Source of the DNA: Escherichia phage N2
Direction: 5' to 3' (one strand)
Sequence record: ON645936.1
Length of the DNA stretch: 64,000 nucleotides
Below are positions 4,977 to 64,000 of the stretch, piece by piece. How positions within the stretch are numbered: position 1 is the stretch's first letter; the number at the start of each line of letters is the position of its first letter. Under the pieces are notes generated by a model. The model had not been told where the DNA came from. It did no database searches and saw only the letters and a program-made list of their open reading frames with translations. Both the position numbers and the translations under genes were made by a program.

Positions 4977-5582
4977 GTGATTATTTCTAAGTTTGTTACA
5001 ATAAAACCAAGAAATCATTCAAAAATGTGGTCGACAATTCTAGGATATAAAGTATCATATCATGATACAGTATCTGTTCCAATAGAATTAATGCCAAAGA
5101 ATAGTAATAAAATAGTTGACGCTAAATGTGATTTGTGCGGTATTAAATTTAGTAGAAGCATTCAGCTTTTAAATAGAACACCTACACATGCATGTAGAAA
5201 ATGTAGCATTAAACAAGTTGCTATTAAAAATTCGGAAGTTCAATCCGGAATAAGCAGACCATGGCAAAGAGGCGATAAACACCCTCGATGGACTGGTAAA
5301 AGAAAAGAGTTTGCATTATATGCTAGTAGAGTTCATTCTATAACTAAGTCAGCTAAAATAAGAAAAATTTGGTCAAAATGGCCGAATGCTGATAAAATAG
5401 GAGTGTGCGGTGTAGAAGGTGCTTACCAACTCGATCATAAAGTATCTATCAAATATGGATTTGATAATTTAATTCCGCCGGAAATTATAGCAAGCGTAAA
5501 AAATTTAGAAATAATCACTTGGGAATCTAACCGAGAAAAGTCAAAAAGAAATAGCGTAGATCTTTGGGATTTACTAGAATGA
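4977..5582 (+). CDS. HNH-family homing endonuclease-like protein inserted between genes 18 and 19 (start uncertain: GTG 4977 with GAGGA SD, or ATG 5025)
   Basis: C-terminal HNH-like motif (..YQLDHKVSIKYGFDN..NLEIITWESNREK) plus Cys pairs CDLCG / HACRKC; absent from this position in T4 as I recall it. Confidence 0.7.
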   Translation: MIISKFVTIKPRNHSKMWSTILGYKVSYHDTVSVPIELMPKNSNKIVDAKCDLCGIKFSRSIQLLNRTPTHACRKCSIKQVAIKNSEVQSGISRPWQRGDKHPRWTGKRKEFALYASRVHSITKSAKIRKIWSKWPNADKIGVCGVEGAYQLDHKVSIKYGFDNLIPPEIIASVKNLEIITWESNREKSKRNSVDLWDLLE

Positions 5583-31093: not shown

Positions 31094-31357
31094 TGCTCAT
31101 CCTTCAAAGTTTGGTTTACAGCTCTATTATAAATCAATTCATCATTAAGCTCAGGCAAAGACTTATGATATGTAGTTCTAACTTTATTTCCTTGCATCCA
31201 GTGCTTGACGTAAATGAAACCTTGCTCTACACATTTTTAAAAATTCGTTCGTCTTTTTGAGCTCGGAATTCTGGATTGCATCTAAAAAATTGATTTACGT
31301 GACCGTAATCACGTGTAGTATTACCTTCATTTTCATAAATAGTGTGAACGACAAACA

Positions 31358-35301: not shown

Positions 35302-35358
35302 CGTTTTTCCTTTTTTGTTAACAGATAAATTAATAATAACAAATAATTCTTAAAGCAT

Positions 35359-42245: not shown

Positions 42246-43424
42246 TTAAAAATATTTTTTAAAACTCATCATAACTTTATCATCAACATCATTATCAATC
42301 TGTGCTACAAGGTAAGATGACAGTTCTACTTCTTGTGGTGCAGATTGAACATTATCAGAATTAAGGTATTCACGAATCCAAGGATATGGATGTTTAACCG
42401 GAGCATCGGTAATTGGACATGGAAGACCACACTGTTTCATACGAGATACAGTTAAGTAATCAATAAAGCTCCACATGCTATTTGTATTTAATCCAGGAAC
42501 ATCGCCATCTTTAAATAAATGAACTGCCCAATCTTTTTCTTGGCGGTTAACTTCCATGAAAATATCAACTGCTTCTTGTTCACACTCTTGAGCAATTTTA
42601 ACCCATTCATCACCATCAGTACCGGATTGAAGTTGACGAATAATATATTGAGTGCCTTTAAGGTGAAGCTGCTCATCACGTGCAATGAACTTCATAATCT
42701 TGGCATTACCTTCCATGATTTCCATGTTCTTATGGAAGTTAAAGGTACATGCAAAAGATACATAAAAACGAATAGCTTCTAAGGCATTAATAACGTGCAA
42801 ACAGAGGTAAAGAGATTTCATTAGTGCTCGTTTAGCTTCGGCTTCTTGTTTAATAGCTCGATTTAAACGAAAAACAGCATCAGGAGATTCTTTAGCTAGT
42901 TCTGTAAATTCTTTAGCATTTTCCCATTCACGGGTTTTAGTCAGAACATCATCATAATAGCGACCGATAGATTCAGCACGTTTCATAATAGCTTTATCTA
43001 GTACAATCTCATCAAATACCTTCGATGGATCAGTATAAAGATTTCGCATGATATGAGTATATGAACGACTGTGAATAGTTTCACTAAAAGTCCATGTAGC
43101 AACCCATGTATCAAGGCTTGGGTCTGAAATTAATGACATAAGTACAGCAGACGGCGCACGACCTTGAATACTATCAAGTAATGATTGATACTTCAGATTA
43201 TTAGTAAAAATATTTTGTTGATACTGAGGAAGCTTATTAAACTGTGCAGCATCCATCATCAAGTTTACTTCTTCCGGACGCCAGAAAAACGAGAGCGAAC
43301 GTTCAATAAGTTCTTCAAATACTCGATGCCGTTGAATATCATAACGCGCAATACCAAGACCTGAACCAAAAAACATAGGTTCTTTTAAAACATCGACCTG
43401 TTTAGTATTAAAAACTGTACTCAT
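42246..43424 (-). CDS. nrdB: ribonucleotide reductase small subunit, uninterrupted
   Basis: 392-aa continuous ORF with di-iron/radical subunit character. Confidence 0.93.
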   Translation of the reverse strand: MSTVFNTKQVDVLKEPMFFGSGLGIARYDIQRHRVFEELIERSLSFFWRPEEVNLMMDAAQFNKLPQYQQNIFTNNLKYQSLLDSIQGRAPSAVLMSLISDPSLDTWVATWTFSETIHSRSYTHIMRNLYTDPSKVFDEIVLDKAIMKRAESIGRYYDDVLTKTREWENAKEFTELAKESPDAVFRLNRAIKQEAEAKRALMKSLYLCLHVINALEAIRFYVSFACTFNFHKNMEIMEGNAKIMKFIARDEQLHLKGTQYIIRQLQSGTDGDEWVKIAQECEQEAVDIFMEVNRQEKDWAVHLFKDGDVPGLNTNSMWSFIDYLTVSRMKQCGLPCPITDAPVKHPYPWIREYLNSDNVQSAPQEVELSSYLVAQIDNDVDDKVMMSFKKYF

Positions 43425-45016
43425 TATTTTGTCCTGTAAACTAAATTTCCACAGTCCCAGATTCTTCTAAGACCATTTGCATAACAATTTTCTACTTCAG
43501 TTATTGTATCATCATAATTTTTAAGCTTGTTTTTAAGCTTATGTTTCATATAGCTTGAGCGGTGAAATACCTCTCCTTTATCGACGTACCAATAACATGG
43601 CTCAGAGATATGACTAAATTCCATGACAGAGTCATAAACATTTGATAATGTACTGCACCATCTTCGATTGCCATAAGATAGACAATTAATTCCTTTTAAT
43701 AATTTTGAGGCTCCTCCTACAACACAAACCCCTAATTTTGAACACATCCTTAAAAGTTCATCACCTGAGCTATATCTAGATTTACCGATAGAAATAATTT
43801 GAACTAACTCATTATTGTAATAAAGTCCTTTATACGTATGAGCTCCTGAGCAAAATCCTTGAAGATGATTCTTATTAATAAATTCTTTTGCCTCATCCTT
43901 ATTAACAAACCGTGCTTTGCATTTTCGGGCTGGTATTCTTTCTGATAATCCTAATTTATGCTTTATAATGGATTTCCAGATCTCTCTTTTTGTATCATCA
44001 ATCCATTCATTTTCGAAGATGTGAAGTAATTGAATTCCTTGTGCTTCACACATCTCTGTCTTCATCAAATGATAAGTTTCTTTAATTTTATCTGTTTCCT
44101 TTGACCCGCTAGAATGCCAATAAATTCCATCGTATTCTATAGCCAATTTTTTCTCAGGAATGTAAATATCTAATTCATACGGAGGAATAATTTTTCTAGT
44201 TTCTACGCAATCAAATCCTAGATCTAAAATGAATTGCTCTATAGAACTTTGAGTATAATGAACGTCAATTAGTCCTTTGGATGAAAGAGCTCTATAAGCC
44301 GTCATCCGAGAACAATTTGCTAATTGTTGTAGTTCTTCTATAGAAATTTTGTAATTGATTTTATCTAGTATATCATGATTAATATGACCGTTATTTTTAA
44401 TAGATTTTCCTATAGATGAATATAACGATGCCTTATATTCTTCAGTCCAATTTAATTTAGTCTTCTTAGATTTTTCGCGAGATTTTCTAGAATGCAGAAT
44501 ATCAACTGATTTACCGTTTTCTATAACTTTTCTCGCTTCTTTCACACTTTCTAATTGTGAATTATGCGTTACCCCATATCGTTCAATTAAAGTTTTTCTA
44601 TTTTTATTTCTTGAAATTTTTTGATGAGTTGTTCCATATTTTTCTAAAGAATTTTTGTGTTGAAGTTCAGACAAATATTTTTTATATTTTTCTTTTCCGC
44701 CAAAATTTGTATCACGGCTTTGAATTCTCTTATCCGCGAAAAATATCCCTGCGCAGGATTTACTACATGTTGCTGGAAATACACGTTTCTTTGCTGTTTT
44801 CAGAGAAATGAAATTTCCACAAACTGCACATTTTAGATCGTTAATGTCAATGCCTTCCATAATTTGGAACACATTGAGCTTAAAATCTATTCCATCAGTT
44901 AGAAGAGCTTTATCTTCTTCTGTTAGTCTAGATTTAAGTTTTTCTTCTCCAAATGGAAGAAACTTTCCGTTTTTGTATATATTATCAAACATAGCGTTAT
45001 TCTTAGTTAACCACAT
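43424..45016 (-). CDS. multidomain putative homing endonuclease: Cys-pair zinc ribbon, Lys-rich linker, Vsr/DUF559-like PD-(D/E)xK motif, unknown C-terminal domain
   Basis: 530-aa ORF between nrdB and nrdA; motifs CAVCGN..CSKSCAG and YELDIYIPEKKLAIEYDGIYWHS. Confidence 0.6.
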   Translation of the reverse strand: MWLTKNNAMFDNIYKNGKFLPFGEEKLKSRLTEEDKALLTDGIDFKLNVFQIMEGIDINDLKCAVCGNFISLKTAKKRVFPATCSKSCAGIFFADKRIQSRDTNFGGKEKYKKYLSELQHKNSLEKYGTTHQKISRNKNRKTLIERYGVTHNSQLESVKEARKVIENGKSVDILHSRKSREKSKKTKLNWTEEYKASLYSSIGKSIKNNGHINHDILDKINYKISIEELQQLANCSRMTAYRALSSKGLIDVHYTQSSIEQFILDLGFDCVETRKIIPPYELDIYIPEKKLAIEYDGIYWHSSGSKETDKIKETYHLMKTEMCEAQGIQLLHIFENEWIDDTKREIWKSIIKHKLGLSERIPARKCKARFVNKDEAKEFINKNHLQGFCSGAHTYKGLYYNNELVQIISIGKSRYSSGDELLRMCSKLGVCVVGGASKLLKGINCLSYGNRRWCSTLSNVYDSVMEFSHISEPCYWYVDKGEVFHRSSYMKHKLKNKLKNYDDTITEVENCYANGLRRIWDCGNLVYRTK

Positions 45017-48653: not shown

Positions 48654-48907
48654 CATTATGTTCAGATAAGGTCGTTAATCTTATCCCGGAATTATATCCA
48701 GCTGCATGTCACCATACAGATCAGACTATATCTCCATCTTGATGAAGCAAGATGTCTATCGTTTCGAGTCACTTGACCCTACTCCCCAAAGGGATAGTCG
48801 TTAGGCATTTAGTTCAAAAGAACATTTAGCACGGGATTGTCTACTAGAGAGGTTCCCCGTTTAGATAGATTACAAGTATAAGTCACCTTATACTCAGGCC
48901 TCAATTA
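48654..48907 (-). ncRNA. group I self-splicing intron in td, ORF-less (about 254 nt)
   Basis: Starts UAAUUGAGGCCUGAGUAUAAGGUGACUUAUACUUGUAAUCUAUCUAAACGGGGAACC after exon-1 ...CUUGGGU, ends ...CUGAACAUAAUG before exon 2, matching remembered T4 td intron ends. Confidence 0.85.
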
Positions 48908-49456
48908 ACCCAAGAACACGTCAACACTTCTTTGATACCACTGCAAATCCAAATAGCCATTACGCACATTAAACTGATAGAACATATGACAAGGCGGTAA
49001 TGCCATTTGCTTGAGTTCAGCTGGATTCCATGCAGAAACAACTTGACGTCTATCATTTGGCAGTTTTTTAATACGATCAATAACTTCTACAATTTGGTCT
49101 ACACCACCAAAATCACGCCACTGTTTTCCATAAATTGGACCAAGTTCACCACTATGATATCCTAAATCTTTTGCTTGATTTTCGTAATTTTCATCCCAGA
49201 CTGTTTTGCCTTGAATTAATGAATCGTGTTGAATTAATCGTAAATCATTGACATTTGTGCTTCCTGATAAAAACCAAAGTAGCTCAGCAATGCAAGCTTT
49301 CCAGGCGAGCTTCTTAGTTGTTACTGCAGGAAAACCTTTAGTTAAATCCCAGCGTAATTTAGTACCGAACAAAGCAATTGTTCCTGTGCCTGTTCGGTCA
49401 TCAGTTTCATAGCCATTTTCAAAAATGTCTTTAATTAAATCTTGGTATTGTTTCAT
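48908..49456 (-). CDS. td: thymidylate synthase, exon 1
   Basis: 183 codons ending ...QRSVDVFLG, followed by in-frame UAA at intron start. Confidence 0.9.
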
Positions 49457-55082: not shown

Positions 55083-58000
55083 ATGGCCGAGATTAAAAGA
55101 AAGTTCAGAGCAGAAGACGGTCTGGACGCAGGTGGCGATAAAATAATCAACGTAGCTTTAGCTGATCGTACCGTAGGAACTGACGGTGTCAACGTTGATT
55201 ACTTAATTCAAGAAAACACAGTTCAACAATACGATCCAACTCGTGGATATTTAAAAGATTTTGTAATCATTTATGATAACCGCTTTTGGGCTGCTATAAA
55301 TGATATTCCAAAACCAGCAGGAGCTTTTAATAGCGTACGTTGGAGATCATTACGTACTGATGCTAATTGGACAACTGTTTCATCAGGACCTTATCAATTA
55401 AAGTCAGGCGAATCAATTTCAGTTGATACTGCAGCCGGTAATGACATTACATTTACTTTGCCATCTTCTCCAATTGATGGAGATACTATCGTTCTCCAAG
55501 ACATTGGAGGAAAACCTGGTGTTAACCAAGTTTTAATTACAGCTCCGGTGCAAAGCATTGTAAATTTTAGAGGTCAGCAAGTACGATCAGTACTAATGAC
55601 TCATCCAAAATCACAGATAGTTTTAATTTTTAGTAATCGTCTGTGGCAAATGTACGTTGCTGATTATAGCAGAGAAGCTGCAATTGTAACACCGGCAAGT
55701 CTTTATCAGGCGCAATCTAACGATTTTATCGTGCGTAGATTTACTTCCGCTGCGCCGATTAATATTAAACTTCCGAGATTTGCTAATCATGGCGATATTA
55801 TTAATTTCGTCGATTTAGATAAACTAAATCCGCTTTATCATACAATTGTTACTACATACGATGAAACGACTTCAATACAAGAAGTTGGAACTCATTCCAT
55901 TGAAGGCCGTACAACAATTGACGGTTTCTTGATGTTTGATGATAATGAGAAATTGTGGAGATTGTTTGACGGGGATAGTAAAGCACGTTTACGTATTATA
56001 ACAACTAATTCAAATATTCGTCCAAATGAAGAAGTCATGGTATTTGGAGCGAATAACGGAACAACCCAAACAATTGAACTTCAACTTCCAACCGATATTT
56101 CCATTGGTGATACTGTTAAAATTTCCATGAATTACATGAGAAAAGACCAAACAGTTAAAATCAAAGCTGCCGGTGAAGATAAAATTGCTTCTTCAGTTCA
56201 ATTGTTGCAATTCCCAAAACGTTCAGAGTATCCGCCTGAAGCTGAATGGGTGACTGTTCAAGAATTAGTTTTTAACGGCGAAACTAATTATGTTCCAGTT
56301 TTAGAGCTTGCTTATATAGAAGATTCTGACGGAAAATACTGGGTTGTACAACAAAACGTTCCAACCGTAGAAAGAGTTGATTCTTTAAATGATTCTACTA
56401 GAGCAAGATTAGGCGTGATTGCTTTAGCTACACAAGCTCAAGCTAATGTCGATTTAGAAAATTCTCCACAAAAAGAATTAGCAATTACTCCAGAAACATT
56501 AGCTAACCGTACTGCTACAGAAACTCGTAGAGGTATCGCAAGAATAGCAACCACTGCTCAAGTGAATCAGAACACTACATTCTCTTTTGCTGATGATATT
56601 ATCATCACTCCTAAAAAGCTGAATGAAAGAACTGCTACAGAAACTCGTAGAGGTGTTGCTGAAATTGCTACGCAACAGGAAACTAATGCAGGTACTGATG
56701 ATACTACAATCATCACTCCTAAAAAGCTTCAAGCTCGACAAGGTTCTGAATCATTATCTGGTATTGTAACCTTTGTATCTACCGCAGGAGCTACTCCAGC
56801 TTCTAGTCGTGAATTAAATGGTACAAACGTTTATAATAAAAACACTAATAATTTAGTTGTTTCGCCTAAAGCTTTGGATCAGTATAAAGCTACTCCAACG
56901 CAACAAGGTGCAGTAATTTTAGCAGTTGAAAGTGAAGTAATTGCTGGACAAAGCCAAGAAGGATGGGCAAATGCGGTTGTAACGCCAGAAACGTTACATA
57001 AAAAGACATCAACTGATGCAAGAATTGGTTTAATTGAAATTGCTACGCAAAGTGAAGTTAATACAGGAACTGATTATACTCGTGCAGTCACTCCTAAAAC
57101 TTTAAATGACCGTAAAGCAACTGAAAGTTTAAGTGGTATAGCTGAAATTGCTACACAAGTTGAATTCGACGCAGGCGTCGACGATACTCGTATCTCTACA
57201 CCATTAAAAATTAAAACCAGATTTAATAGTACTGATCGTACTTCTGTTGTTGCTCTATCTGGATTAGTTGAATCAGGAACTCTCTGGGACCATTATACCC
57301 TTAATATTCTTGAAGCAAATGAGACACAACGTGGTACACTTCGTGTGGCTACGCAAGTTGAAGCTGCTGCAGGAACATTAGATAATGTTTTAATAACTCC
57401 TAAAAAGCTTTTAGGTACTAAATCTACTGAAGCACAGGAAGGTGTTATTAAAGTTGCAACTCAGTCTGAAACTGTAGTTGGAACGTCAGCAAATACTGCT
57501 GTATCTCCAAAAAATTTAAAATGGATTGTACAGAGTGAACCTACTTGGGCAGCTACTACTCTGGTAAGAGGTTTTGTTAAAACTTCATCTGGTTCAATTA
57601 CATTCGTTGGTAATGATACAGTTGGTTCAACACAGTCATTAGAATTATACGAGAAAAATAGCTATGCAGTATCACCATATGAATTAAACCGTGTATTAGC
57701 AAATTATTTGCCGTTAAAAGCAAAAGCCGTAGATAGTAATTTACTGGATGGTCTAGATTCATCTCAGTTCATTCGTAGGGATATTGCACAAACGGTTAAT
57801 GGTTCACTAACCTTAACCCAACAAACGAATCTGAGTGCCCCTCTTGTATCATCTAGTACTGCTACGTTTGGTGGATCAGTTTCAGCAAATAGTACACTAA
57901 CCATTTCTAATACTGATGGAACAGCAACTCGTCTGATTTTTGAGAAAGGACCTCAAACTGGAACGAACCCGGCTCAAACGATGACAGTCAGCGTGTGGGG

Positions 58001-58955
58001 GAATCAATTTAGTGGGGAATCAAACACAACACGTTCTACCGTATTTGAAGTTAGTGATGAAACATCTTATCACTTTTATTCTCAACGCGATAAAGATGGT
58101 AATATAGCATTTAGCATTAATGGTACTGTAATGCCAATAAATGTGAATGCTTTAGGTTCTTTGAACGCGAACGGCGTTGCAACATTCGGTAGTTCAGTTA
58201 CTGCTAATGGCGAATTTATCAGTAAATCGTCGAATGCTTTTAGAGCAATAAACGGTGATTATGGATTCTTTATTCGTAATGATGCTGCTAACACCTATTT
58301 TATGCTTACTGCATCTGGCGATCAGACTGGTGGATTTAATGGATTACGTCCATTATCAATTAATAATCAATCTGGTCAAGTAACGATTGGTGAAAGCTTA
58401 ATCATTGCCAAAGGTGCTACTATAACTTCAGGTGGTTTAACTGTCAACTCGAGAATTCGTTCTCAGGGTACTAAAACCGCTGATTTATACACCCGTGCAC
58501 CGACATCTGATACTGTAGGATTCTGGTCAATCGATATTAACGATTCAGCTACTTATAACCAATTCCCGGGTTATTTTAAAATGGTTGAAAAAACTAATGA
58601 AGTGACTGGACTTCCATACTTAGAACGTGGCGAAGAGGTTAAATCTCCTGGTACATTGACTCAGTTTGGTAACACACTCGATTCGCTTTACCAAGATTGG
58701 ATTACTTATCCAACGACCCCAGAAGCGCGCACCACTCGCTGGACACGTACATGGCAGAAAACCAAAAATTCTTGGTCAAGCTTTGTTCAGGTATTTGATG
58801 GAGGTAACCCTCCTCAGCCATCTGATATCGGTGCTTTACCATCTGATAATGCTACAATGGGGAATCTTACTATTCGTGATTTCTTACGAATTGGTAATGT
58901 TCGCATTGTTCCTGACCCAGTGAATAAATCTGTTAAATTTGAATGGGTTGAATAA
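55083..58955 (+). CDS. 34: long tail fibre proximal subunit gp34
   Basis: 1290-aa ORF with internal repeats; late promoter upstream. Confidence 0.95.
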   Translation: MAEIKRKFRAEDGLDAGGDKIINVALADRTVGTDGVNVDYLIQENTVQQYDPTRGYLKDFVIIYDNRFWAAINDIPKPAGAFNSVRWRSLRTDANWTTVSSGPYQLKSGESISVDTAAGNDITFTLPSSPIDGDTIVLQDIGGKPGVNQVLITAPVQSIVNFRGQQVRSVLMTHPKSQIVLIFSNRLWQMYVADYSREAAIVTPASLYQAQSNDFIVRRFTSAAPINIKLPRFANHGDIINFVDLDKLNPLYHTIVTTYDETTSIQEVGTHSIEGRTTIDGFLMFDDNEKLWRLFDGDSKARLRIITTNSNIRPNEEVMVFGANNGTTQTIELQLPTDISIGDTVKISMNYMRKDQTVKIKAAGEDKIASSVQLLQFPKRSEYPPEAEWVTVQELVFNGETNYVPVLELAYIEDSDGKYWVVQQNVPTVERVDSLNDSTRARLGVIALATQAQANVDLENSPQKELAITPETLANRTATETRRGIARIATTAQVNQNTTFSFADDIIITPKKLNERTATETRRGVAEIATQQETNAGTDDTTIITPKKLQARQGSESLSGIVTFVSTAGATPASSRELNGTNVYNKNTNNLVVSPKALDQYKATPTQQGAVILAVESEVIAGQSQEGWANAVVTPETLHKKTSTDARIGLIEIATQSEVNTGTDYTRAVTPKTLNDRKATESLSGIAEIATQVEFDAGVDDTRISTPLKIKTRFNSTDRTSVVALSGLVESGTLWDHYTLNILEANETQRGTLRVATQVEAAAGTLDNVLITPKKLLGTKSTEAQEGVIKVATQSETVVGTSANTAVSPKNLKWIVQSEPTWAATTLVRGFVKTSSGSITFVGNDTVGSTQSLELYEKNSYAVSPYELNRVLANYLPLKAKAVDSNLLDGLDSSQFIRRDIAQTVNGSLTLTQQTNLSAPLVSSSTATFGGSVSANSTLTISNTDGTATRLIFEKGPQTGTNPAQTMTVSVWGNQFSGESNTTRSTVFEVSDETSYHFYSQRDKDGNIAFSINGTVMPINVNALGSLNANGVATFGSSVTANGEFISKSSNAFRAINGDYGFFIRNDAANTYFMLTASGDQTGGFNGLRPLSINNQSGQVTIGESLIIAKGATITSGGLTVNSRIRSQGTKTADLYTRAPTSDTVGFWSIDINDSATYNQFPGYFKMVEKTNEVTGLPYLERGEEVKSPGTLTQFGNTLDSLYQDWITYPTTPEARTTRWTRTWQKTKNSWSSFVQVFDGGNPPQPSDIGALPSDNATMGNLTIRDFLRIGNVRIVPDPVNKSVKFEWVE

Positions 58956-58963
58956 GAGGTATT

Positions 58964-60079
58964 ATGGAAAAATTTATGGCAGAGTTTGGACAAGGATATG
59001 TCCAAACGCCATTTTTATCGGAAAGCAATTCAGTAAGATACAAAATAAGCATAGCGGGTTCTTGCCCGCTTTCTACAGCAGGACCATACGTTAAATTTCA
59101 GGATAATCCTATCGGAAGTCAAACATTTAGCGCAGGACTTCATTTAAGAGTTTTTGACCCTTCTACAGGAGCATTAGTTGATAGTAAGTCATATGCTTTT
59201 TCGACTTCAAATGATACTACATCAGCTGCTTTTGTTAGTTTCATGAATTCTTTTTCAAACAACAGACTTGTTGCTATATTAACCAGCGGAAAGGTTAATT
59301 TTCCTCCTGAGGTAGTATCTTGGCTAAGAGCCGCGGGAACGTCTGCTTTTCCATCTGATTCTATATTGTCAAGATTTGACGTATCATATGCTGCTTTTTA
59401 CACTTCTTCTAAAAGAGCTATTGCATTAGAGCATGTTAAACTGAGCAACAGAAAAAGCACAGATGACTATCAAACTATTTTAGATGTGGTGTTTGACAGT
59501 TTAGAAGACGTTGGAGCTACCGGCTTTCCAAGAAGAACGTATGAAAGCGTTGAGCAATTTATGTCAGCGGTTGGTGGAACTAATAACGAAATTGCGCGAT
59601 TGCCAACTTCAGCTGCCATAAGTAAATTATCTGATTATAATTTAATTCCTGGTGATGTTCTTTATCTTAAAACACAGCTATACGCCGATGCTGATTTACT
59701 TGCGCTTGGAACCACAAATATATCTATCCGTTTTTATAATGCATCAAATGGATATATTTCTTCAACACAAGCTGAGTTTACCGGGCAAGCTGGGTCTTGG
59801 GAATTAAAAGAAGATTATGTAGTTGTTCCAGAAAACGCTGTGGGATTTACGATATATGCACAAAGAACTGCACAAGCTGGCCAAGGTGGCATGAGAAATT
59901 TAAGCTTTTCTGAAGTATCAAGAAACGGCGGTATTTCAAAACCTGCTGAATTTGGCGTCAATGGTATTCGTGTTAATTATATCTGTGAATCTGCTTCACC
60001 TCCGGATATAATGGTACTTCCTACACAAGCATCGTCTAAAACTGGTAAAGTGTTTGGGCAAGAATTTAGAGAAGTATAA
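58964..60079 (+). CDS. 35: long tail fibre hinge connector gp35
   Basis: 371-aa ORF; synteny. Confidence 0.9.
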   Translation: MEKFMAEFGQGYVQTPFLSESNSVRYKISIAGSCPLSTAGPYVKFQDNPIGSQTFSAGLHLRVFDPSTGALVDSKSYAFSTSNDTTSAAFVSFMNSFSNNRLVAILTSGKVNFPPEVVSWLRAAGTSAFPSDSILSRFDVSYAAFYTSSKRAIALEHVKLSNRKSTDDYQTILDVVFDSLEDVGATGFPRRTYESVEQFMSAVGGTNNEIARLPTSAAISKLSDYNLIPGDVLYLKTQLYADADLLALGTTNISIRFYNASNGYISSTQAEFTGQAGSWELKEDYVVVPENAVGFTIYAQRTAQAGQGGMRNLSFSEVSRNGGISKPAEFGVNGIRVNYICESASPPDIMVLPTQASSKTGKVFGQEFREV

Positions 60080-60141: not shown

Positions 60142-60807
60142 ATGGCTGATTTAAAAGTAGGTTCAACAACTGGAGGCTCTGTCATTTGGCATCAAGGAAA
60201 TTTTCCATTGAATCCAGCCGGTGACGATGTACTCTATAAATCATTTAAAATATATTCAGAATATAATAAACCACAAGCTGCTGATAACGATTTCGTTTCT
60301 AAAGCTAATGGTGGTACTTATGCGTCAAAGGTAACATTTAACGGCGGCGTGCAAATACCATATGCTATAAACAATACAAACCAAAGCGGTATTTATCCTG
60401 GCAATGGTGATGCTGCTACTTTTGATACAGCAAATATTGATATTGTTTCATGGTATGGTATTGGTTTTAAATCATCACAGGGTTCAGCAGCCAGAACTGT
60501 AGTAATCAATACACGTAATGGTGATATTAGTACAAAAGGTGTTGTATCCGCTGCAGGTCAAGTAAGAAGTGATATGCCGACGCCAATTGCAGCGAATGAC
60601 CTTACTAGAAAGGACTATGTTGATGGAGCAATAAATACTGTTACGGCAAATGCGAACTCTAGGGTGTTGCGTTCTGGTGACACTATGATTGGTAATTTAA
60701 CCGCACCAAACTTTTTCTCGCAGAATCCTGCATCTCAACCTTCTCACGTTCCACGATTTGACCAAATCGTAATTAAGGATTCTGTTCAAGATTTCGGCTA
60801 TTATTAA
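60142..60807 (+). CDS. 36: long tail fibre distal connector gp36
   Basis: 221-aa ORF; late promoter upstream. Confidence 0.9.
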
Positions 60808-60815
60808 GAGGACTT

Positions 60816-63800
60816 ATGGCTACTTTAAAACAAATACAATTTAAAAGAAGCAAAACCGCAGGTGCACGTCCTGCTGCTTCAGTATTAGCCGAAGGTGAAT
60901 TGGCTATAAACTTAAAAGATAGAACAATTTTTACTAAAGATGATACAGGAAATATCATTGACTTAAGCATTTCTGCTGGTGGTAATATCAGTGGAAATAT
61001 CACTCAAACCGGAGATTATACACAGACTGGAAAATTTAATTTAATTGGTCCGCAAATTGTAGCAAGCGGTGGATATATTGAGTTTAATTATCGTACGACT
61101 GGAAGCGGCTCGTGGTCTGGTCAACACGCTGCAAAAGCTCCAATTTTTGTAGATTTGAGCTCCGCTCTTTCCACATCTGAATATAATCCTATAATTAAAC
61201 AGCGCTTTAAAGATGGAACTTTTTCTGTTGGTACGTTAGTAAATGAAGGAAGTTTTAAGATTCATTATATCAATGAATCGGGAACTTCAAAATACTGGAC
61301 ATTTCGTAGAGATGGTGGATTTGTTGTTGATACAGGAAGTTTGACAGTATCAGATGGTAATATTTCTGCATCAGGCAATATTAACTCGGCAACTGGATTT
61401 GTTTCTGCACCACGCGTCAATACAAAAAATATTAACTTGAGTTCTAAAACCTTTATCACGAATAATGACGCGGGTTATGACATTGTTTCTTTACCTACCT
61501 GGGTTTATAACCCACCGGCCGATGGTTCCGACAATACTACAAATGGATTGAACTATTTGCGTAAATTACGTGCATCAAGTGCAGCAAGTATTTTCCATGA
61601 AATTGCCGATTGCCGAAAAGGTAAGCCACAAGAAATTTCTTGGTGGACAGGCGTAGGCCCGGAATCTTTCCTATGGGCGTTTGATATCTCCGGTCGTATT
61701 ACTGCAGGTAAATCTATTTCAGTAGGTCTTCCTGATAACGGTGCAAATGGACGTTATCCTTTAGATTCTGCCATTTCTATCGGTATTGCAATTGGTGATA
61801 ATGACACCGGTATTAAATGGGTCCGCGATGGCGTTTATGACCTGATGGCTAACGGTATTTCATCCGCTACCATTTTGAACAACGGTATTAATAGTACTAA
61901 AAAATTGATGGTTGGTTATAGCCGCGATTCTGGTACTACTTGGGATTACCCAAATAACAACCAAGCAATGTTTACTGCGCGTACCGATGTTGATGGTAAT
62001 AATAACGGCGATGGTCAGACTCATATCGGTTATAACAGTAATTCTAAAATGTATCACTATTTCCGTGGCACGGGTCGTATGTCTGTTAGCATGGGCGATG
62101 GACTTCTTGTTGAGCCAGGTATTTTAGATATTAAAACTGGGTCTAATAGAGTTGCTATTAGAGCAGATGGTACATTTGACTCAACTCAACGTATTTCAAT
62201 GCGTACGGGCTTGTTTTTAAATGGTGATGATAATACCAATGCTTTGTCATTTAAAGCTCCTTCCGGTGTAGATGGTACCAAAACTATTAACTGGGATGCA
62301 GGCACTCGTAACGGACAGAATAAAAATACTGTTTCAATTAAAGCATGGGGTAATGCCTTTAACTCAGTTCCCGGTATTAGAGAAACTGTATTTGAAGTAT
62401 ATGATTCACAAGGTTATTATTTTTATTCACAACGCCAGCGCCCAGAAGGTTCTGAAACTGTTGGGCCCGTTGTAACCCAGTTCAATGGACCAGTTAATGC
62501 TAACGGCTCTATTAGCACTGCAGGAAATCTTAAAGTTGATGGTTTAAGCACTTTAAACGGTAATGTTACAATGAAGAACGGCTTGTTTGTCCAAGGTGGT
62601 TCTTCTATTACCGGACAAGTAAAAATTGGTGGAACAGCTGATGCATTAAGAATTTGGAATGCCGAATACGGTGCTATTTTCCGTCGCTCAGAAACAGCAT
62701 TACATATTATCCCGACTCCTAAAGATGCTGGTGAAAGTGGTGGAATAAGTAATCTCCGCCCATTAAGTATTAGTCTTAATAATGGTATGGTACAAATGCG
62801 TCATTCGGTTACATTAGGCGACGATGGATTAGGCGGCAATATGGTTACTATTGATAATGATAGTAAACTTGTTGTGATAACTTCTAATACCAGATTAAGC
62901 CCTAATTTCCGCATGCAAATAGGCCACTCGTCTTATATTGATGTTGAATGCACTAACTCTGTTCGCCCGGCAGGTGCTGGTTCGTTTGCTTCACAGAATA
63001 ACGAAAATGTTCGTGCACCGTTCTATATGAATATCGACCGTGGTGATAATAGTACTTATATTCCAATTTTGAAGCAACGTTACGTTCAAGGAGATAGTAC
63101 TTATTCTATTGGCACCTTAATTTCTCAAGGAGACTTCCGCGTACATTATCACCAGGGCACTAGTACTACCGGAACTGATATAAGTTGGGAATTCCGTCGT
63201 ACTGGTGACTTCCGCACACCTGGTAAAATTATTGCCGGTGCTGCTACTCTTGGCACTGATGGCAATATTACGGGTGGTTCTGGTAACTTTGCTAACTTAA
63301 ACAGTACAATTGAATCACTTAAAACTGATATTGTTTCAAGTTATCCTATTGGAGCTCCAATTCCATGGCCAACGGATACTCCTCCTGACGGTTACGCTAT
63401 TATGGAAGGTCAGACTTTTGATAAGTCTGCATATCCAAAGCTAGCTGTTGCATATCCTAGCGGTGTTATTCCAGATATGCGCGGGCAGACTATCAAGGGT
63501 AAACCAAGCGGTCGTGATGTTTTGAGCGCAGAAGCAGATGGTGTTAAGGCTCATAGCCATAGTGCATCTGCTTCAAATACTGACTTAGGCACTAAAACCA
63601 CATCAAGCTTTGACTATGGTACGAAGAACACTAATAGTACTGGTGCTCACACTCACTCTGTAAGTGGTACAACAAGTGCTGCTGGTAACCACGCTCATCA
63701 CTTAGGTCTACTATTAGTTATCGGCGATGATGCTTTGTACGGTTATACAACCATTGGTAACAGTCTACCTAGAACACTTGACTGGCTTGACAAAGAGACA

Positions 63801-63890
63801 ATAAGTTCCCTAACACTAACACAACTGGTAACCATACACACACATGGTCTGGTACTACAAGCGGTGCTGGTGACCATTCCCACTCTGTAG
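60816..63890 (+). CDS. 37: long tail fibre distal subunit gp37; reading frame breaks near 63791-63812 and the His-box tip continues in another frame to the window end
   Basis: 1024-aa ORF; remaining HxH-box sequence ..[58 protein letters not shown] is read in the frame of codon 63791. Confidence 0.85.
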
Positions 63891-64000
63891 GTATTGGTGC
63901 TCATACCCACACGGTAGCGATTGGTTCGCATGGTCATACTATCACTGTAAATAGTACAGGTAATACAGAAAACACGGTTAAAAACATTGCTTTTAACTAT

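Follow-up and report, generated by a model that had tools for sequence, protein, structure and literature searches.

A missing base in gene 37 upstream of the His-box receptor-binding tip in the genome sequence of Escherichia phage N2

The long-tail-fibre operon and the reading frames of gene 37

The stretch of DNA analysed here (64,000 nucleotides of record ON645936.1, hereafter the window) comes from a T4-like phage (Tequatrovirus) and ends with its long-tail-fibre operon, which occupies the last 9 kb and lies entirely on the + strand. Based on the list of open reading frames and on tblastn matches to the proteins of phage sutha (PV245934), gene 34 was assigned to 55083-58955 (95.7% match to sutha gp34), gene 35 to 58964-60079 (97.6% to gp35), gene 36 to 60142-60807 (87.3% to gp36), and the start of gene 37, which encodes the distal subunit of the long tail fibre, to 60816 (87.5% to gp37). 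The location of gene 37 in the late operon, after genes 34, 35 and 36, is that of a T4-type gp37.

The part of gene 37 that is read in the original frame extends from 60816 to 63792 and comprises codons 1-992 and the first base of codon 993. Residues 1-993 of sutha gp37 could be aligned to 60816-63797 in frame 3 with 87.5% identity, and a Collar domain (Pfam PF07484) was detected at residues 846-893. Beyond this point, the open reading frame runs on through an out-of-frame tail (63792-63890) of 32 codons and ends at a TAG (63888-63890) after 1024 codons. The -1 frame is closed upstream by a TGA at 63788-63790, so that any switch between the two frames has to take place at or after 63791, and it is open from 63791 to the end of the window at 64000. 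This frame carries the displaced 3' part of gene 37 (63794-64000, + strand) with the four His-x-His boxes that belong to the needle's descending strand; residues 992-1061 of sutha gp37 were found at 63791-64000 in frame 2 with 98.6% identity (tblastn), and Phage_fiber (PF03335) was recognized in its peptide with 23.8 bits at a cut-off of 20. Since the peptide is the same as that of phage sutha and nearly the same as that of T4 gp37, the open -1 frame reflects homology rather than chance. A sequence-only reading of this DNA had described a main frame stopping at 63888-63890 and a -1 frame, open from codon 63791 to the window end, that encodes the conserved His-box tip; sequence and translation bear out the stop, and translation and homology the second frame. 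The gene itself is cut by the end of the window about five codons short of the stop codon of its relatives, in which the protein ends in NYIVRLA.

Several other features were observed elsewhere in the window. A group I intron is present in the thymidylate synthase gene td (48702-48917, - strand; Rfam RF00028, 72.6 bits), which is short and devoid of a homing-endonuclease ORF, whereas the td introns of T4 and sutha carry I-TevI; the td exons of phage BYEP01 (OR757453) are likewise only about 257 nt apart. An ORF of 530 aa (43424-45016, - strand) is located between nrdB and nrdA, in a stretch of about 1.6 kb left out of the alignment with sutha, which passes from 43430 straight to 45026; a 522-aa hypothetical protein is annotated at the same place in phage LH2. 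Moreover, a 201-aa ORF (4977-5579, + strand) separates the gene for the tail sheath (gene 18) from that for the tail tube (gene 19) and shows a 99% match to the KMB39 protein annotated as 'gp19.1 hypothetical protein', while the T4 reference has no annotated gene between genes 18 and 19.

Position of the missing base and the intact frame in relatives

When 63300-64000 was compared with 50,697 phage records by megablast, two close relatives were identified, sutha (97.7% DNA identity) and BYEP01 (96.6%), each with 702 bases opposite 701 bases of the window. A three-way DNA alignment of the window and these two phages contains only one internal gap, which corresponds to a G between 63792 and 63793 (+ strand), and the gap list of the pairwise blastn comparison likewise gives a one-base deletion in the window at 63793. 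At this site, CTTGACAGAAGAGAC is found in sutha and CTTGACAGACGTGAT in BYEP01, against CTTGACA-AAGAGAC in the window; the shorter context of the relatives is GACAGAAGAGAC versus GACA-AAGAGAC, and the pair of alleles across 63780-63810, distinguished by the presence or absence of the G, is GACAGAAGAG versus GACAAAGAG. Codon 993 is thereby changed from AGA (Arg) in the relatives to AAA in the window, and the frame downstream is shifted by -1. Putting the G back yields one uninterrupted ORF, which continues to the conserved NIAFNY(IVRLA) end. Thus, gene 37 is an ordinary T4-type gene lacking one G between 63792 and 63793.

The sequence-only reading was correct in recognizing a 1-nt deletion, equivalent to a -1 shift, that breaks gene 37 just upstream of the His-box tip, as the alignment confirms. 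The deletion had been placed, however, in the C run at 63808-63810, and TTCCCTAAC, which includes this CCC run, is the same in the window, sutha and BYEP01; the gap lies about 16 nt upstream. This wrong site had entailed a wrong junction peptide and a wrong rationale: the junction does not run through ISS-P-NTNTT but, according to the alignment with the G restored, begins after DWLD, and the missing G falls outside any homopolymer, the intact sequence at the lesion being A-G-AA.

Once the G is put back, the peptide across the junction matches exactly that of sutha, BYEP01, AV122 and Shigella phage SHBML-50-1. Within it, the residues RRDN are encoded by AGA AGA GAC AAT in sutha and by AGA CGT GAT AAC in BYEP01, and these exclusively synonymous differences imply purifying selection on this frame. 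The repaired 72-residue peptide, which covers the head and the junction, was found by tblastn as a single piece in one frame in all 35 phage records that carry the module, including members of both Tequatrovirus and Felixounavirus. The broken frame was therefore seen in the window alone among the sequences compared, and the possibility that gp37 of close relatives might genuinely end at the 63888-63890 stop is excluded by the reading through of all 35 related records. In sutha and BYEP01, gp37 is encoded by one ORF of 1066-1069 aa, from which the window differs by the absence of the G. A T4-type gp38 chaperone gene follows gene 37 in both of these phages as well as in AV122, SHBML-50-1 and T4. 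Downstream of the lesion (from 63793), 208 nt of the window match sutha at 100% identity, indicating no sign of decay.

Larger sequence collections were also searched. In a protein collection of 5.8 billion clusters, no carrier of the out-of-frame 32-residue tail could be detected, and only unrelated His-box fragments were matched. Pattern scans of IMG/VR, JGI metagenomes and GTDB genomes, in which variants with and without the G were both accepted, returned neither the G-lacking nor the intact variant. The closest phage records to the window reach no more than about 98% identity. Exact protein matches to the truncated gp37 ORF and to gp34 were also sought, and none turned up. The exact gp36 of the window was present on two Logan contigs, each of which is 94-96% identical to the window; one of them has a T2-type gp37 and the other ends before the lesion.

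Structure of the tip and its counterparts in other phages

The C-terminal 247 residues of the repaired protein align to the receptor-binding tip of T4 gp37 (PDB 2XGF; E = 6e-109), with full identity over the last 41 aligned residues. Seven HxH motifs were found in the repaired protein, three on the ascending strand (913, 945 and 959) and four on the descending strand (1007, 1021, 1030 and 1039). The Collar domain, the His-x-His needle and the homology to 2XGF are thus all those of a T4-type gp37, whereas the single uninterrupted frame of this family is interrupted in the sequence as written by the break at 63792|63793 and the stop at 63888-63890. As one restored base gives a single frame, the gene belongs to the T4-type gp37 family and is disrupted as written; it represents a known family and no new kind of system.

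By mapping the protein to T4 residues, based on the 2XGF alignment and the numbering of PMC6957217 (H929, H931, I933, G964 and F970), the break was placed where the tip subdomain ends, between the residues equivalent to S952 and Y953 of T4. The lost segment corresponds approximately to T4 residues 953-1026, comprises the needle's entire descending strand with four of the seven HxH motifs, and is replaced by 32 unrelated residues. In T4, seven irons are coordinated along the needle, and the iron sites are built by the pairing of descending and ascending strands of the same chain (PMC6957217; 2XGF alignment). It has been reported that alanine at the iron-binding histidines abolishes plaque formation, the histidines being irreplaceable, and that suppressor strains were used to score the function of gp37 amber mutants (PMC6957217); gene 37 appears as an essential gene in PMC8573959. 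Because the descending strand is lost, the gene is essential and the histidines are irreplaceable, the ORF as written cannot yield a functional fibre. A subunit made from it would have no descending half of the iron-stapled needle and could neither fold nor bind the receptor.

The repaired gene resembles that of T4 in the gene order 34-35-36-37, the Collar domain and the seven iron-binding HxH motifs. On the other hand, T4 has another module as its head (tip) subdomain, located between the third and fourth HxH, and T4 gp37 is uninterrupted, in contrast to the window ORF with its 1-nt deletion. A head module of the same type as that of the window is present in sutha, BYEP01, AV122 and SHBML-50-1. 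One head loop reads VIGDD in the window (63720-63730) and VNGGD or VNGGA in the relatives, with changes of N to I and G to D; these substitutions, in a loop that probably contacts the receptor, might change the host range. In addition, the C-terminus of gp37 in AV122 and SHBML-50-1 contains an extra copy of SSFDYGTKT and an extra GIGAHTHTV His box, both of which are missing in the window, sutha, BYEP01 and T4; duplications of this kind have been reported to widen T4's host range (PMC8573959, citing its ref. 33, Tetart et al. 1996).

Similar tips also occur in tail fibres of the Felixounavirus type, where the 72-aa peptide of head and junction shows 82-96% identity and is read in one frame in each case. 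The Felixounavirus carriers of the head module have genomes of about 88 kb. Both the genus and the fibre architecture upstream of the tip differ, and these phages serve only as independent witnesses of the intact frame. The sharing of the head module (63700-63800) with Felixounavirus tail fibres indicates an exchange of tip modules between genera.

Origin of the lesion and its meaning for annotation

The indel quality of the rest of the window bears on how the missing G may have arisen. When about 90 proteins of sutha and KMB39 were compared with the whole window by tblastn, changes of frame were found in gene 37 and gene 30.1 only. Gene 30.1 (DUF3045; 31358-31093, - strand), located immediately upstream of gene 30 for DNA ligase, has its lesion at 31233-31238, where a run of five T in the window stands opposite six in sutha. 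In a sample of 60 of the 500 matching phage records, all full-length matches to this gene cover 267 nt, compared with 266 nt in the window, which makes the deletion unique to the window; the best match is 99.6% identical and differs only by the one-base gap. Moreover, a one-base insertion in a T run at 35310-35316, in the spacer between genes 31 and 31.1, is unique to the window among six genomes. In a comparison of these six genomes, in which indels unique to one genome were counted where at least three others align, the window had two (the gene 30.1 deletion and the 35310 insertion) over roughly 46 kb of multiple alignment, compared with one to three in four deposited isolate genomes and nine in the T4 reference. 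The assembly is thus clean overall and not unusually noisy. The oddities that remain in it are indels of a single base; two conserved genes are broken in this way, and the pattern formed by the gene 37 and gene 30.1 deletions and the 35310 insertion fits residual indel noise in the consensus, although the six-genome comparison neither proves nor excludes an error.

Consensus error, inactivating mutation and recoding, the alternatives named in the sequence-only reading, were indeed the right ones to weigh, and recoding failed every test run. We infer, with modest confidence, that the missing G is an error of the consensus sequence (base-calling, polishing or assembly) and not a property of the infectious phage. 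This is favoured because gene 37 is essential, the sequence downstream is perfectly preserved and the allele was unseen elsewhere. Homopolymer errors are typical of 454, Ion Torrent and nanopore data, the A-G-AA context is atypical for such errors, and indels are rare in an Illumina consensus. Owing to this non-homopolymer context, unlike that of the commonest class of sequencing error, a genuine, recent and private null frameshift of gene 37 in the sequenced DNA is retained as a possible but less probable explanation. It could correspond to a defective, fibre-less genome from an environmental or mixed population, to a minority variant picked by the assembler, or to a high-multiplicity stock in which the allele is carried through complementation and phenotypic mixing with wild-type siblings; metagenome or mixed-stock DNA could truly sample such a defective genome, which counts against the error reading. 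An assembly otherwise about as clean as deposited isolate genomes also speaks for a genuine change, and the absence of downstream decay is as compatible with a very recent event as with an artefact. T4 stocks do acquire single-base frameshifts, but in diverged stock lines these were found only in one auxiliary and one hypothetical gene, whereas the changes in genes 34 and 37 were all missense (PMC8573959). Further objections are that gene 37 is essential for adsorption, so that a null allele cannot become the consensus of a plaque-purified phage, that needle ambers were assessed on suppressor strains, that the iron-binding histidines are irreplaceable (PMC6957217), and that the allele is absent from the 35 phage records, the protein collection and the scans of IMG/VR, metagenomes and GTDB, the scans being without the intact variant as well. 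Nothing here points to the deletion being real in a viable phage, and it would be surprising if it were.

The remaining explanations accept the sequence as written. Production of full-length gp37 through -1 ribosomal frameshifting or transcriptional slippage within 63791-63887 appears very unlikely. Its geometry is suitable, as the frames share 97 nt, within which a -1 shift restores the conserved C-terminus, and overlapping frames with the downstream one at -1 are shared with programmed sites such as dnaX and the G/GT type of phage tail-assembly chaperones. However, gene 37 differs from these in having no slippery heptamer, stimulatory structure or conservation, and in a break that falls inside an essential structural domain needed stoichiometrically. 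Between 63780 and 63890, neither an in-frame X_XXY_YYZ heptamer nor a homopolymer run of at least four is present, and hence a canonical -1 slippery site is lacking here, as is a template for transcriptional slippage. The RNA of 63786-63905 folds at -23.1 kcal/mol compared with a shuffle mean of -27.2 (z = +1.16), a stability equalled or exceeded by 177 of 200 shuffles. The two-frame arrangement occurs in none of the 35 relatives, a programmed signal cannot arrive with a lineage-specific 1-nt deletion, and no literature on gp37 frameshifts as a biological mechanism was found. Each T4 virion contains 18 copies of gp37, for which background slippage would supply too little to sustain the phage. 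It is even harder to credit that the G is truly absent from the infectious phage and that enough gp37 is supplied by signal-less -1 slippage or transcript editing near GAC-AAA-GAG; if true, an essential virion protein would be maintained via low-level spontaneous recoding. Least plausible of all is a naturally split or short gene, in which gp37 ends at 63890 or the tip is a separate polypeptide. It is suggested by the ORF map only; the -1 frame has no ATG, GTG or TTG in 63791-64000, so that the tip is not translatable separately, the 32 residues before the stop match nothing, and the T4 iron sites need both strands of the same chain (2XGF alignment; PMC6957217). As far as sequence can tell, these comparisons and the single ORF of the relatives (about 1066 aa) refute both of its forms.

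The main consequences concern annotation. The analysis moves the lesion away from the C run and corrects the junction peptide; inserting a single G after 63792 mends the gene, and codon 993 (AGA) pinpoints the target for resequencing. Gene callers applied to the sequence as written give a truncated gp37 of 1024 aa with a meaningless 32-residue tail. The receptor-binding His-box end is then missed, and host-range prediction or fibre engineering that starts from this genome would be misled.
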